From UHGV virus genome UHGV-0053376: DNA of 10,524 nucleotides. One strand, given 5' to 3'. The notes beneath the pieces were generated by a model. That model was given only the letters and a program-made list of their open reading frames with translations, was not told the origin of the DNA and made no database searches. This document shows positions 5,697-8,776 of this stretch, piece by piece (position 1 is the stretch's first letter; every line of letters starts with the position of its first letter). A program made the translations under genes and the position numbers. Origin of the DNA: a virus.

Positions 5697-5889
5697 GAAT
5701 CCTCCCGGTCGGGATAATGTTGTGAGTCAGATGAGGGGCGGGCTGAAGTCCGGAAGTTACAGGACAATGGCAGGAGGAAGACTACAGCCCGCAATACGAA
5801 AAAGGCCGCGCTATTGCGCAGAGTGATTACTGTCGGATATTATTCGCCAGCTGAAATATTACTTCACGTTTTGTTGTTTATTCCTTGCC

Positions 5890-5918
5890 GCCCGCGTCTC
5901 CCAGCGCGGGCTTTTTTT
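5890..5918 (+). terminator. Plus-strand intrinsic terminator
   Basis: Stem gcccgcg 5890-5896 / cgcgggc 5905-5911 (7 bp GC), 8-nt loop, followed by T7 (5912-5918). Confidence 0.45.
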
Positions 5919-5949
5919 GTCCATAAGAAAGCCCCTCCGGAGAGGGGCT
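5919..5949 (-). terminator. Minus-strand intrinsic terminator, back-to-back with the plus-strand one
   Basis: Stem gcccctc 5931-5937 / gaggggc 5942-5948 with tetraloop cgga. On the minus strand it is followed by UUUCUUAUGGAC (complement of 5919-5930). Confidence 0.45.
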
Positions 5950-6209
5950 GGAGAGTGGCGCTATGTGCCATTGCATGGTGCCGGGTGCCTCCCGGTGAGT
6001 TCAGCCCGGTGACACTAAACCCGCATATTCTCGCTTACGATCATCAAAGAGATCATACCGTTCACCAGTCGCCCCTCCGCACAGGGGGATTCACCATGCG
6101 AAATTTTTTTAACAAATGCTCAGCCTGACAGGCAACTGTCAACTTACTGAATTGTGAGGAATTTAACACTTCACAGCACAATATCTTTCCAGCGCCCCAA
6201 AATCATCAG

Positions 6210-6236
6210 GACAGGAGAAAATCTTCTCCCCCTGTC
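6210..6236 (-). terminator. Hairpin overlapping the lipoprotein stop codon (possible weak terminator)
   Basis: ggagaa 6214-6219 / ttctcc 6224-6229 inner stem, plus outer gaca / tgtc pairing. On the minus strand it is followed by CUGAUGAUUUUGGGG, a moderately U-rich tract. Confidence 0.3.
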
Positions 6237-6663
6237 AGAGTTTAAAATCCAGCACGCCATTTCTAAATGCTTTATATACTCCTGAAGACGGTGGTGATGG
6301 TATATCAGCATTCTTTACTGCATTCATCGCTTCACGACATAAATCGGGATCACCGCTTTCTCTTTTAACCTGTAGCAGAAGACCATTCGGGGCCATATAC
6401 ATTCTCAGTGAACACTCTTTTCCTGAATACTTACTCGCATCCTTTAACTGTTCTTCTATGGCTTTCCTGACCTGAATGGCATACTGCCTGATTTCTTCAC
6501 TGGCATCAGGGGTACGTTCCGATGAGCTCAAATTTTGCGACTTTATTAATTTATCTGAGTGATACAGAGAAGCATCATAATTATTTGTCGATACATCTTT
6601 TGTGCAGCCAGTTGTCAGACTGGCTAATATCAAAACAAGAACTGGTACAGCACGGCAATACAT
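6235..6663 (-). CDS. Outer-membrane lipoprotein with a TolA C-terminal (domain III)-like domain, 142 aa
   Basis: Signal peptide MYCRAVPVLVLILASLTTG-C with lipobox-like TTGC and Thr at +2. C-terminal 85 aa (IRQYAIQVRKAIEEQLKDASKYSGKECSLRMYMAPNGLLLQVKRESGDPDLCREAMNAVKNADIPSPPSSGVYKAFRNGVLDFKL) aligns with E. coli TolA domain III as I recall it (…YAGQIKSAIESKFYDASSYAGKTCTLRIKLAPDGMLLDIKPEGGDPALCQAALAAAKLAKIPKPPSQAVYEVFKNAPLDFKP), including both Cys. Good SD (GGAGATGG) and low GC relative to flanks. Confidence 0.8.
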   Translation of the reverse strand: MYCRAVPVLVLILASLTTGCTKDVSTNNYDASLYHSDKLIKSQNLSSSERTPDASEEIRQYAIQVRKAIEEQLKDASKYSGKECSLRMYMAPNGLLLQVKRESGDPDLCREAMNAVKNADIPSPPSSGVYKAFRNGVLDFKL

Positions 6664-6860
6664 TTATCCATCTCCATATTAACAAGAACAATTATCTATA
6701 AAATATAGTAAATATGCGGGATCCGGGAGGACTTGTAACTATCATCTCCGGATCAGCATGTAGTTTTTATTTTTCCGGATGATATATGCCGCAATAATAC
6801 CCCTGCATACAGATGCCTGCAAATATCTACGAAGCATCCGGCGAGAATAAACAAGGAAGT
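6664..6860 (-). promoter_or_regulatory. AT-rich upstream region of the lipoprotein gene containing repeated CCGGAT motifs (candidate promoter/operator)
   Basis: gatccgg 6720-6726 is inverted relative to ccggatc 6748-6754; tccggat repeats at 6774-6780; catccgg at 6835-6841 is inverted relative to ccggatg 6775-6781. The region is AT-rich with several TATA-like hexamers on the minus strand. Exact -35/-10 not assignable by eye. Confidence 0.3.
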
Positions 6861-6863
6861 CTG

Positions 6864-6885
6864 AGGCTATCTTATATGATAGCCT
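6864..6885 (-). terminator. Perfect 8-bp hairpin downstream of the tRNA genes (candidate tRNA-operon terminator)
   Basis: aggctatc 6864-6871 / gatagcct 6878-6885 with loop ttatat. On the minus strand it is followed by CAGACUUCCUUGUUUAUUCUC, moderately U-rich. Confidence 0.3.
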
Positions 6886-6941
6886 GTTGCTCAAAAGACA
6901 ATGATTCACTCATCAGAACCAACAACGCATAATGCAGATAA

Positions 6942-7018
6942 TGGACCGCCATCGAGGACTCGAACCCCGCGCAGCCAGCTTCGAAGGCTGGCGCTCTATC
7001 CCGATGAGCTAATGGCGG
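6942..7018 (-). tRNA. tRNA-Arg, anticodon UCG (would read CGA/CGG)
   Basis: Reverse complement folds as a cloverleaf: acceptor CCGCCAT / ATGGCGG, D-stem GCTC / GAGC with G18-G19 and A20, anticodon stem CCAGC / GCTGG with loop CTTCGAA (U33, anticodon UCG, A37), T-stem CGGGG / CCTCG with T-loop TTCGAGT, 3' CCA encoded. Begins with an unusual C1-G72 pair. Confidence 0.8.
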
Positions 7019-7027
7019 TATGTGATA

Positions 7028-7103: not shown

Positions 7104-7143
7104 GGGCATAGGATAATAACGGTACGTAACTAATTCTGCAATA

Positions 7144-8202
7144 TCATCCGTTCTGACTGACTAAATTCTGAACTTCCCTGACCGTCTGCTCAAAACGCTC
7201 AGTCTCCAGCTCAACGCCAGTTGCACGACGTCCCAGCGCTATCGCTGCTTTGACTGTCGAACCTGACCCCATGAAGAAATCTGCAACCAGGTCACCCGGA
7301 CGACTGCTCGCGCTGATTATCTGCTGCAGCATTTCTGCCGGTTTTTCGCACGGATGTTTCCCGGGATAGTACTGCACCGGTTTATGCGTCCACACATCGG
7401 TGTACGGCACCTGCACCGTCACACCAAAATACCGCCGCAGATGCTTATATTCACTCTGCAGTTCCGTATACTGCCGGTTCAGTTCACTGTATGTGCTGAC
7501 CAGTTGGTGATGTGGCTTTTCCAGTTCTCCGCGCTGATGCTTATCTTCTGCCACCCGGGCAAACAGCGACTGTAATTTCAGATAATCGCTTTCGTTCGGT
7601 AGCTGCCACTGACTGGCACTGAACCAGTGCGACACCATGTTTTTCTTTCCTGTGGCATCTGCAATCTGTTTTGCCGTTATCCCCAGGGCCGCGCGCGCAT
7701 CACGAAAGTAAGAAATCAGCGGGGCCATCACATGCTGTTTCAGTGCACTGCCCTTCGCCGCATACCCGGCATCTTTCGGACGATACGGCCCCTGATAATG
7801 TTCCGCGAACAGAATGCGCTCTGTGGCGGGGAAATACGCCCGCAGGCTTTCCTTGTTGCATCCGTTCCAGCGTCCGGACGGCTTCGCCCAGATAATATGG
7901 TTCAGCACACTGAAGCGTTCACGCATCATGATTTCGATATCAGATGCCAGGCGATGACCACAGAACAGGTAAAGACTTCCGGCAGGTTTCAGCACCCGCC
8001 AGAACTGCGCCAGACACTGGTCCAGCCACTTCAGGTAATCATCGTCGCCCTTCCACTGGTTATCCCAGCCCTCAGGCTTCACTTTAAAGTACGGCGGATC
8101 CGTGACTATCAGGTCAACAGAATTTTCGGGTAACGACCGGATAAATTCCAGGCAGTCGGCGTTGATTAACTCACAACTGGATATTTTTACAGTATTAAGC
8201 AT
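7144..8202 (-). CDS. Orphan DNA amino-methyltransferase (N6-adenine or N4-cytosine, beta class), 352 aa
   Basis: N-terminal catalytic motif IV DPPY (LIVTDPPYF) and C-terminal AdoMet-binding motif I FxGxG (DFFMGSGSTVKAA). Motif IV before motif I is the beta-class order. No restriction endonuclease gene is adjacent. Confidence 0.85.
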   Translation of the reverse strand: MLNTVKISSCELINADCLEFIRSLPENSVDLIVTDPPYFKVKPEGWDNQWKGDDDYLKWLDQCLAQFWRVLKPAGSLYLFCGHRLASDIEIMMRERFSVLNHIIWAKPSGRWNGCNKESLRAYFPATERILFAEHYQGPYRPKDAGYAAKGSALKQHVMAPLISYFRDARAALGITAKQIADATGKKNMVSHWFSASQWQLPNESDYLKLQSLFARVAEDKHQRGELEKPHHQLVSTYSELNRQYTELQSEYKHLRRYFGVTVQVPYTDVWTHKPVQYYPGKHPCEKPAEMLQQIISASSRPGDLVADFFMGSGSTVKAAIALGRRATGVELETERFEQTVREVQNLVSQNG

Positions 8203-8296
8203 GGATCATTAAGCCTGTCTCTGATAGGCTCATTCTGCTTTTGCGCAAAGCAGTGGGCCTGAGGTTTGCTTGTGAACCCAACGCATGAGCAGATGG

Positions 8297-8325
8297 CTGG
8301 TGGGTGCCCCTAACACCCACCAGCC
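8297..8325. repeat. Perfect 11-bp inverted repeat with 7-nt spacer in the methylase leader, carrying Chi (GCTGGTGG) on both strands
   Basis: gctggtgggtg 8297-8307, loop cccctaa, cacccaccagc 8315-8325. No U-tract follows on either strand, so it is not a classical terminator. GCTGGTGG at 8297-8304 and its complement at 8318-8325 are Chi octamers. Confidence 0.6.
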
Positions 8326-8342
8326 GCCCATTTACCACAAAT

Positions 8343-8366
8343 AAAAAAGCCTTCACTGCGGAAGGC
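8343..8366 (-). terminator. Intrinsic terminator overlapping the stop of the small winged-helix ORF
   Basis: Stem gccttc 8349-8354 / gaaggc 8361-8366 with a 6-nt loop. On the minus strand it is followed by U6 (complement of the A-run 8343-8348). Confidence 0.5.
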
Positions 8367-8550
8367 GTCTGTAACAACCGAACTGATAGTCTGCCAGACC
8401 CGCCATAACCAGCTGGGTCAGTATTAACTGGCAGCGTTCGCGTGAAAGGTAAGTATTCTGCGCTATCTCCCCGACTGTCGCCGGTTCGGTAACTCTTAAT
8501 TCATTAAACACTACTCTGGCGGTTTCTGTCATATCCTGCTGTTTTAGCAT
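8353..8550 (-). CDS. Small winged-helix-like DNA-binding protein (about 65 aa), hypothetical regulator
   Basis: Internal ATG at 8550 chosen (AAGGGA upstream). Segment ATVGEIAQNTYLSRERCQLILTQLVMAGLADY fits the helix-turn-helix pattern of ArsR/MarR-type winged helices. Located between the candidate tR' and the methylase gene. Confidence 0.45.
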   Translation of the reverse strand: MLKQQDMTETARVVFNELRVTEPATVGEIAQNTYLSRERCQLILTQLVMAGLADYQFGCYRRLPQ

Positions 8551-8672
8551 GTCTTTTTCCCTTTTCCGGTTAACGTGACACACCAATAACTCTTGTCGAA
8601 AAAGCCAGCAAGCTGAAAGACAGGTATTCACCGCCACCAGCGCGTTTACTGTACTGACGCGATTTCAGTCAT

Positions 8673-8694
8673 AAAAAACCCGCCAGGCGGCGGG
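8673..8694 (-). terminator. Strong intrinsic terminator downstream of the Q-like gene (candidate tR')
   Basis: Minus strand: stem cccgcc (complement of 8689-8694) / ggcggg (complement of 8679-8684) with tetraloop gccu, followed by U6 (complement of A-run 8673-8678). Lies about 65 nt downstream of the candidate pR'. Confidence 0.55.
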
Positions 8695-8743
8695 GTGTAA
8701 AAAATCTTCTAACGTCAGGCATAAAACGCCCATCGTTAGAGCA

Positions 8744-8771
8744 AATTTACCACAGATTCGGGAAAAATCAA
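8744..8771 (-). promoter_or_regulatory. Candidate late promoter pR' (-35 TTGATT, 16-bp spacer, -10 TAAATT)
   Basis: On the minus strand, TTGATT (plus 8766-8771) and TAAATT (plus 8744-8749) are separated by 16 bp, immediately after the Q-like stop. I recall TAAATT as the lambda pR' -10. The call rests on hexamers and position only. Confidence 0.35.
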
Positions 8772-8776
8772 CAACA

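Follow-up and report, generated by a model that had tools for sequence, protein, structure and literature searches.

A gene for a predicted TolA-like lipoprotein in the toxin position of a Shiga toxin phage-like late region

The virus genome UHGV-0053376 was analysed over a stretch of 10,524 nt (hereafter the window, to which all coordinates refer unless another locus is named). An initial annotation had described the interval 5697–8776 as a late region laid out as in Shiga toxin (Stx) phages with the toxin replaced. The explanation that best accounts for the results overall, and for which we see about even chances, is that this interval is the promoter-proximal part of the late operon of an stx-negative lambdoid prophage assembled from modules of Stx2a phages, with a gene for a decoy of the host protein TolA as its cargo. 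The product of this gene, here called mini-TolA, is a predicted outer-membrane lipoprotein. The layout itself teaches nothing new, since late regions of the Stx-phage type are common in prophages that lack the toxin, and the small RNA (sRNA) encoded beside the cargo has already been described. The present analysis shows the stx position as an exchange slot with defined borders and several alternative cargoes. It also indicates that approximately one in six complete Escherichia coli genomes carries a mislabelled 'TolA', an unstudied lipoprotein imitating the part of TolA that is hijacked by colicins and filamentous phages. If mini-TolA is indeed a decoy, it would offer gut E. coli a simple and transferable means of tolerating colicins and phages, as well as a natural tool to perturb Tol-Pal.

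Synteny with Stx2 phages and the borders of the slot

The minus strand of the window carried every element named in the initial annotation, at or near the position assigned to it (Table 1). The order and orientation Q, pR′/tR′, small open reading frame (ORF), DNA methylase, tRNA ileZ, tRNA-Arg at the argN position, cargo slot, STnc100, nanS-p, DUF826, holin, lysozyme and Rz/Rz1 are those of Stx2a-converting phages of the 933W/Sp5 type, including phage ASU11 (ON416862). The gene order proposed earlier was correct, though it had left out the methylase and the small ORF (8550–8353). The methylase is the same gene in the same place as in Stx2a phages, the esterase aligned to NanS-p of ASU11, and the small ORF is annotated as hypothetical both in ASU11 and in strain G1/2, the closest complete-genome relative. 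The interval 5697–8776 matched 376 phage records, almost all of them Stx-converting, and the best phage matches covered 73% of it in two pieces straddling stx2A and stx2B. Compared with ASU11, window 6921–8693 was 94.9% identical, and window 5697–6157 matched the stx2B–nanS-p spacer at 87.3% identity. On alignment, the synteny with Stx2 phages is far beyond chance, and the claim of an Stx phage-like layout therefore stands.

The window differs from the Stx2a-converting phages in lacking stx2AB and argO, its slot being occupied by the lipoprotein gene. The blastn breakpoints against ASU11 lay at 6157/6158 and 6920/6921. The 763 bp between them (6158–6920) had no counterpart in ASU11, which carries there 1445 bp comprising argO, stx2A, stx2B and a 45-nt trailer, so that, as the initial annotation had proposed, the toxin interval holds other cargo. 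The right-hand junction retains the argN–argO spacer and the first eight bases of argO. No stx remnant was detected in the window with Stx2A and Stx2B as tblastn queries (best E 0.5–1), 6158–6920 showed no blastn similarity, and no direct or inverted repeats that might have caused an insertion were found flanking the cassette. Two of the three tRNA genes of Stx phages (ileZ–argN–argO) are present, argO being the absent one. The tRNA-Arg at the argN position reads TCG here and TCT in ASU11 (7842–8008 of the ASU11 locus), a single-base difference; the missing argO is a tRNA-Arg(TCT), yet the cargo gene is rich in AGA and AGG codons.

When both flanks were joined and searched against 5426 complete E. 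coli genomes, the same scaffold was found with other cargo between the tRNA genes and the sRNA or esterase gene, namely stx2AB, TerB with DUF3927, IraM, DUF3927 with a hypothetical protein, or no protein gene at all. The scaffold is present in roughly 3,450 E. coli genomes. In strain STEC17-183, an example of the 'empty' slot, argO is followed by an apparent second STnc100-like copy. Given this variety of cargo on one scaffold, the phrase 'toxin replaced' is most suitably taken to mean that an exchange slot common to these prophages holds alternative cargo; 'replaced' here means occupying the same position, and the data give no direction of exchange. The slot extends from just after argN to approximately 29 nt before STnc100, and we consider the modular reading, with one slot and different cargoes, very probable. 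Prophages that combine an Stx-phage-like late region and nanS-p with the absence of a toxin gene have been well documented (PMC8065619).

Between the cargo gene and nanS-p, the initial annotation had found approximately 540 bp with no convincing ORF (5697–6234). The lack of a convincing ORF held, but the stretch is not empty, since an STnc100 sRNA gene lies inside it. The Rfam family RF02076 matched 5919–6128 on the gene strand with 177.7 bits against a gathering score of 47, covering model positions 1–206 of 206, and the cassette border lies 29 nt upstream of this start. The initial annotation had also raised the question of whether the stretch matches the region downstream of stxB or contains toxin remnants; it matched that region, at the 87.3% identity given above, and held no stx remnant. 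In ASU11, the STnc100 element lies 74 nt after stx2B, and the published position is 75 nt downstream of the stx2 operon (PMC12370729). A 2026 preprint (10.64898/2026.05.13.724894) relates STnc100 to PasD, an sRNA of enteropathogenic E. coli, and places it upstream of a prophage esterase gene. The 540-bp stretch is the conserved stxB-to-nanS-p intergenic region with a full-length gene for an sRNA of the STnc100/PasD family.

Several further observations concern this sRNA region. A strong terminator lies on the plus strand just past STnc100 (5890–5911), and the same spot in strain G1/2 (7705–7757, plus strand of that locus) scored as AsxR exactly at the Rfam threshold; AsxR gave no match in the window at E ≤ 10. 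Some relatives with the window's architecture (type A, see below) have three or four additional STnc100-family copies in tandem, approximately 260 nt apart and about 2 kb downstream of the first copy. In three such loci the arrays lie at 3377–4356, 8508–9217 and 8508–9487 (locus coordinates), and the extra copies may be PasD1/PasD2 variants.

The other border of the downstream module lies at the late terminator. Directly 3′ of the Q stop codon, the window reads TTGATT-N16-TAAATT followed by TTGCTCTAACGATGGG. In the alignment with the region 3′ of lambda Q, GGTAAATTTG....AACGATGGG was conserved, and the pR′ core was near-identical to that of lambda. We take TAAATT to be the −10 element of lambda pR′ and AACGAT to be the −10-like element responsible for the sigma-dependent pause at which Q loads. 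The hairpin at 8694–8679 lies approximately 45 nt past the region of the pause element, and the RNA fold of 8737–8670 had a free energy of −21.9 kcal/mol (z −2.9); the hairpin and its U run are the expected tR′. Homology to ASU11 began exactly at this hairpin (8693), Q in the window being a 273-aa PF03589 protein and not of the ASU11 type. Q, the promoter and the transcript start thus form one exchangeable module and everything downstream another. Lambdoid phage mEp460 has the Q side in common with the window (8671–10524 at 92.9%), and the terminator thus marks where the Q/pR′ module ends and the late module downstream of it begins.

The predicted mini-TolA lipoprotein and its relatives

The N-terminus of mini-TolA, MYCRAVPVLVLILASLTTG-C20-T21, reads as a signal peptide whose lipobox, LTTG-C20, departs slightly from the usual pattern (Thr at −3), and G19, C20 and T21 are nearly invariant across the mini-TolA family. 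Thr rather than Asp at position +2 predicts sorting to the outer membrane. Residues 21–53 were predicted to be disordered (predicted local distance difference test, pLDDT, < 50 in the AlphaFold2 model) and would form a tether. Residues 54–142 correspond to domain III of TolA (TolAIII), as indicated by a match to PDB TolAIII chains (1s62/3qdp) at 1.6e-25 and by 50.6% identity to residues 333–421 of E. coli TolA. Foldseek with the AlphaFold2 model, which was used for fold assignment only, returned E. coli TolAIII as all of its top five matches with probability 1.00. Both cysteines are kept, as are L417-D418-F419-K420 (LDFK) on strand beta3 and Y340, F412 and F419 (TolA numbering); D418 and K420 correspond to D139 and K141 of mini-TolA.

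In its C-terminal 89 residues, mini-TolA thus agrees with host TolA (TIGR02794/NF007065) in fold, in the cysteines of the disulfide and in strand beta3, whereas the inner-membrane anchor of domain I and the long helical domain II are absent from this 142-aa protein. The NCBIfam matches covered only the last 90–96 or so profile positions (297–386 of 387; 266–361 of 362). The score for NF007065 was 103 bits against a cutoff of 213; that for TIGR02794 was 75.9 bits against a cutoff of 59.45, as a local match only. Judged by these profiles, mini-TolA is not an orthologue of TolA, and the name 'cell envelope integrity protein TolA' given by the Prokaryotic Genome Annotation Pipeline (PGAP) is an over-annotation. 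PGAP and RAST give mini-TolA this name or 'TolA protein', and do likewise with relatives of 115–160 aa in other genera, so that genomes seem to have two tolA genes.

The cargo cassette had a guanine-plus-cytosine (GC) content of 40.5%, against 52.3% and 52.8% in its flanks, and mini-TolA uses AGA or AGG for five of its eight Arg codons and ATA for four of its six Ile codons. Among alleles differing by up to 35%, the ratio of nonsynonymous to synonymous substitution rates (dN/dS) was 0.26–0.29 in the domain and 0.39–0.59 in the signal peptide and tether, showing that the gene is maintained by purifying selection. Morons are known from the Q-to-lysis interval of lambdoid phages, including stx1/stx2, nmpC in DLP12, the lc porin in PA-2 and csp genes in Qin. 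The cassette shows the moron features of a distinct composition (GC and rare codons) and of presence or absence among collinear phages. Like these genes, mini-TolA is a compact gene of foreign composition in the late transcript, unrelated to phage growth and absent from close relatives; it differs from them in that its product mimics a domain of a host envelope machine and is not a toxin, porin or cold-shock protein. Morons of Stx phages have been described in general terms (PMC8065619). While the layout was already known, mini-TolA adds a new member to the class of lambdoid morons.

The cassette was present at ≥ 95% identity in 122 of the 5426 complete E. coli genomes, with a 100% identical copy in strain G1/2 (NZ_CP060083), for example, and a second allele (approximately 81% DNA identity) was present in about 770 more, giving 895 genomes with a mini-TolA gene. 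Among deposited phage genomes, the gene was found in mEp460_ev081 only; at least 125 contigs in IMG/VR carry it, and among GTDB species representatives one Shigella flexneri genome alone had a close relative. Late genes flanked mini-TolA on the same strand in 83 of 84 fetched loci carrying the gene, a count that is descriptive because the loci are non-independent samples. The gene lay downstream of Q and tRNA genes and upstream of the holin gene, with at least two Q types and in two architectures. In type A, to which the window belongs, the order is Q (273-aa or ASU11-type), with or without the small ORF and methylase, ileZ, argN, mini-TolA, STnc100, NanS-p and holin. In type B, which lacks the methylase and NanS-p, it is the 273-aa Q, ileZ, STnc100, mini-TolA, a second and more distant TolAIII lipoprotein, and holin. 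This second lipoprotein (mEp460 5580–5975; Rac-like prophage of strain H2 5455–5829) has approximately 25% identity with the first, and its lipobox is VAGC. In strain G1/2, a gene near the terminase genes (1193–1519) encodes a 108-aa 'TonB family protein', which may represent a second free-standing energy-transducer tip encoded by that prophage.

Searching 1.84 billion representative proteins gave 118 matches at E ≤ 1e-10, many of them 115–160 aa long and aligning end to end, and most of 33 fetched relatives had a lipobox. The wider family includes members from Serratia, Kosakonia, Klebsiella, Scandinavium, Dryocola and Pseudescherichia, all automatically named TolA. The Serratia gene lies at the end of a prophage, and another member lies on a Rep3/ParA plasmid contig. 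Klebsiella michiganensis has a pair of mini-TolA genes immediately upstream of cdiB/cdiA-like genes of contact-dependent growth inhibition (CDI; locus 5520–12441). In Pseudescherichia vulneris, the gene is divergent from that of a pore-forming colicin in which the ColA_N domain was recognised (PF22348, 29.3 bits against a cutoff of 27; locus 4193–5509 and 6001–6414). ColA_N presumably corresponds to the segment of colicin A that binds TolAIII in PDB 3QDR. These two neighbourhoods, each a single case, hint at a connection between mini-TolA and Tol-dependent toxins.

A proposed decoy of TolA and its alternatives

TolAIII is the periplasmic hook for TolB, for group A colicins and for g3p of filamentous phages, the force being transmitted from TolQR through domains I and II (PMC7391070). 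TolB and g3p bind on strand beta3, the binding site of colicin A being the other edge of the sheet (PMC7391070), and the substitutions D418P and K420P on beta3 abolish the binding of TolB, g3p-N1 and colicin N and render the cells leaky (Ridley and Lakey, PMC4339652). When free TolAIII is exported to the periplasm, E. coli cells release periplasmic proteins (Wan & Baneyx, 1998; applied in PMC6195910). The position of the cargo gene and established lambdoid biology lead us to expect its strong expression from pR′ under Q. The hairpin downstream of mini-TolA is weak (z −1.8), and no convincing terminators flank the gene. Type A alleles 30% apart have in common a −10-like GATAAT ending 24 nt before the ATG start codon, which leaves room for expression in the lysogen as well. 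In the type B allele, a good sigma-70 promoter, TTGAGC-N17/18-TATATAAT, lies close to the start. Levengood-Freyermuth et al. in 1993 reportedly observed both leakiness and colicin tolerance with periplasmic TolAIII.

Considering these results, we propose the following scenario, in which we infer the localisation, binding partners, phenotype and expression timing of mini-TolA. Q would modify RNA polymerase at the lambda-like pR′ so that it reads through tR′, and transcription would continue across the methylase gene, the two tRNA genes, the cargo slot, STnc100, nanS-p and the lysis genes. The lipoprotein signal would place mini-TolA at the inner leaflet of the outer membrane, where the flexible tether of approximately 33 residues would present TolAIII in the periplasm. 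Without the anchor and domain II, mini-TolA could not transmit the force of TolQR, while retaining the beta3 edge strand that binds the N-terminus of TolB, g3p and colicin N. It may thereby trap those parts of incoming group A colicins or filamentous phages that bind TolA, make the lysogen tolerant and, at a higher dose, may also compete with TolA for TolB. A decoy conferring tolerance to Tol-dependent colicins and filamentous phages is our preferred but tentative reading, held at slightly less than even probability. It is favoured because of the moron-like composition, the relatives outside phages, the one relative beside a colicin A-like gene, the type B promoter and the type A GATAAT.

The proposed decoy has partial parallels. 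Cor of phages phi80 and N15 and Llp of T5 are likewise small phage lipoproteins on the periplasmic side of the outer membrane that act on the import route of rivals; they inactivate the receptor FhuA, whereas mini-TolA, which has no sequence relationship to them, would imitate a periplasmic co-receptor. Engineered periplasmic TolAIII and the sequestration of TolA by g3p of Ff phages show that free or occupied TolAIII perturbs Tol-dependent import and outer-membrane integrity (PMC6195910; PMC4339652; PMC7391070). These are, however, laboratory constructs or the reverse case, in which a phage protein binds host TolA, whereas mini-TolA is a natural mobile gene whose product is predicted to be lipid-anchored and is 49% diverged.

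Several results weigh against the decoy. In the alpha2 helix, mini-TolA differs from TolA by G334S, N338R, N339Q, G342I and S346K, so that its ligand specificity may differ, and the AlphaFold2 model is of moderate confidence (pLDDT of the domain approximately 60–79). A sigma-70 scan was not enriched over shuffled sequences (3 promoters found against 4.3 expected), leaving a promoter of its own unproven, and should expression of mini-TolA be confined to the late phase, a cell on the verge of lysis would gain little from tolerance. Many copies in the databases are truncated or frameshifted, members in several genera occupy ordinary chromosomal sites with no link to toxins or phages, and the colicin and CDI neighbourhoods are single cases. 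PADLOC matched mini-TolA to no family at E ≤ 0.01. A literature search for phage or prophage TolA-like proteins, for the RefSeq accessions of mini-TolA and for decoy or exclusion terms found no study of mini-TolA and turned up no experimental or transcript data on it. A candidate from the literature, EDL933_2012, mentioned as a 'TolA' induced 32-fold by ciprofloxacin (PMC11125564), was rejected, the supplement listing it as a tail fiber protein.

Alternatively, mini-TolA could be a helper of lysis or release, a true late protein which, when produced in bulk under Q antitermination, would titrate the N-terminus of TolB away from TolA, shut down Tol-Pal and loosen the outer membrane, thereby accelerating or completing lysis, periplasmic leakage or vesicle release together with the spanins. 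The constant place of the gene within the late transcript, where Q and holin lie on either side of it in the same orientation, the lack of a convincing flanking terminator and the weak or uncertain promoter of its own all agree with such a role. So do the release of periplasmic proteins on overproduction of periplasmic TolAIII, as reported in PMC6195910, and the leakiness of the TolA beta3 mutants that lose TolB binding (PMC4339652), the TolB-contact strand being conserved in mini-TolA. However, most lambdoid phages with the same lysis cassette lack mini-TolA and the slot elsewhere holds unrelated cargo, so that mini-TolA is not part of the lysis machinery. Its composition is foreign, as is typical of morons that act in lysogenic conversion; a good sigma-70 promoter is found near the start of the type B allele, and relatives occur outside prophages, on chromosomes and plasmids. 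We regard a lysis helper as the main rival of the decoy, though a rather improbable one.

Recent loss of the toxin is less probable still. According to this explanation, the window would derive from an Stx2 phage that lost stx2AB through direct deletion and overwriting, the cargo marking a degraded toxin locus. In its favour are the 94.9% identity of the right flank to ASU11 and the location of the junctions, one of them 45 nt past the end of stx2B and the other at the start of argO. Against it stand the lack of any stx remnant, a left flank only 77–87% identical, a Q module of a different type, the same scaffold elsewhere with TerB and DUF3927, IraM, DUF3927 and a hypothetical protein, or a second STnc100-like copy, and the occurrence of mini-TolA behind other Q types and in an architecture without the methylase or NanS-p. 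Together, these observations indicate module shuffling and not a one-off deletion.

That mini-TolA is an inert passenger, a captured fragment of host tolA without function that is carried because the slot tolerates insertions, would fit the PGAP name and the many truncated or frameshifted copies, but is hardly credible in view of the 51% identity to E. coli TolA (so that capture was not recent), the gain of a lipoprotein signal and tether, the dN/dS of 0.26–0.29 across alleles 30–35% apart, the intact 142-aa copies in 895 of 5426 genomes and the wider family of 115–160-aa lipobox-and-TolAIII proteins in several genera.

Extending the decoy beyond the present prophage, mini-TolA lipoproteins might constitute a natural class of 'import-decoy immunity' on prophages, plasmids and bacteriocin or CDI islands. 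With a TolA tip uncoupled from force on show beneath the outer membrane, a single small gene of this kind would confer broad tolerance to Tol-dependent colicins and filamentous phages and perhaps tune outer-membrane vesiculation; in E. coli, it would compete with Shiga toxin for the slot. We consider this generalisation possible but doubtful.

Other features of the window

The features of the window are listed in Table 1. As one block, the whole window was not found in any complete E. coli genome, the best match having 79% coverage at 94.9%. The lysis cassette spans 2983–908 on the minus strand, and window 1–1945 was 94.5% identical to mEp460.

Table 1. Features of the UHGV-0053376 window, in the order of the minus strand
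Feature	Position	Strand	Evidence or remarks
DUF968 protein	10506–9982	−	
RusA	9969–9595	−	
Antiterminator Q, 273 aa, with DnaJ-like zinc-finger segment	9598–8777	−	PF03589 5e-51; phrog_127 'anti-termination protein Q-like' 1e-110
Late promoter pR′	8771–8732	−	−35 TTGATT 8771–8766; −10 TAAATT 8749–8744; pause element AACGAT 8737–8732
tR′ intrinsic terminator	8694–8673	−	6-bp all-GC stem (hairpin 8694–8679), then U run; terminator scan
Small conserved ORF, function unknown	8550–8353	−	phrog_331 1.2e-42; 65 aa according to PGAP; reading frame open back to 8637
Terminator-like hairpin 3′ of small ORF	8366–8349	−	Terminator scan
N6-adenine DNA methyltransferase	8202–7144	−	PF01555 1.5e-43; PADLOC MTase_II 2e-164
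tRNA with CAT anticodon, ileZ-type	7103–7028	−	ARAGORN; Rfam tRNA 72.5 bits; identical gene is tRNA-Ile according to PGAP in related genomes
tRNA-Arg, anticodon TCG, argN position	7018–6942	−	ARAGORN
Cargo cassette, 763 bp	6920–6158	−	blastn breakpoints against ASU11; GC content
mini-TolA, predicted outer-membrane lipoprotein, 142 aa	6663–6235	−	PF06519 5.7e-23
STnc100/PasD-family sRNA gene	6128–5919	−	Rfam RF02076; terminator hairpin 5949–5930 (terminator scan)
Intrinsic terminator facing late operon	5890–5911	+	8-bp stem, then T7; terminator scan
NanS-p-type sialate O-acetylesterase, 662 aa	5696–3708	−	DUF1737, SASA and DUF6645; phrog_143 4e-301
DUF1378 ORF (esterase–holin interval)	3569–3387	−	
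DUF826 ORF (esterase–holin interval)	within 3523–3059	−	
P21-type holin	2983–2768	−	Pfam scan; lysis cassette families PF04971, PF07041, PF00959, PF10721
DUF1327 protein	2764–2255	−	
Lysozyme	1935–1402	−	
DUF2514 Rz-like protein	1405–908	−	Embedded Rz1-like lipobox ORF 1230–958
Cold-shock gene, 70 aa, with cspA-type leader	691–307	−	

Two minor observations concern the lysis end of the window. A cspA-type 5′ untranslated region thermoregulator (114 bits against a cutoff of 78) lies 3′ of Rz, as part of an accessory gene in common with mEp460. On the opposite strand, between the lysozyme and DUF1327 genes, an ORF of 110 aa (1975–2307, plus strand) had no Pfam match, and a plus-strand hypothetical gene is annotated at the matching place in strain G1/2.

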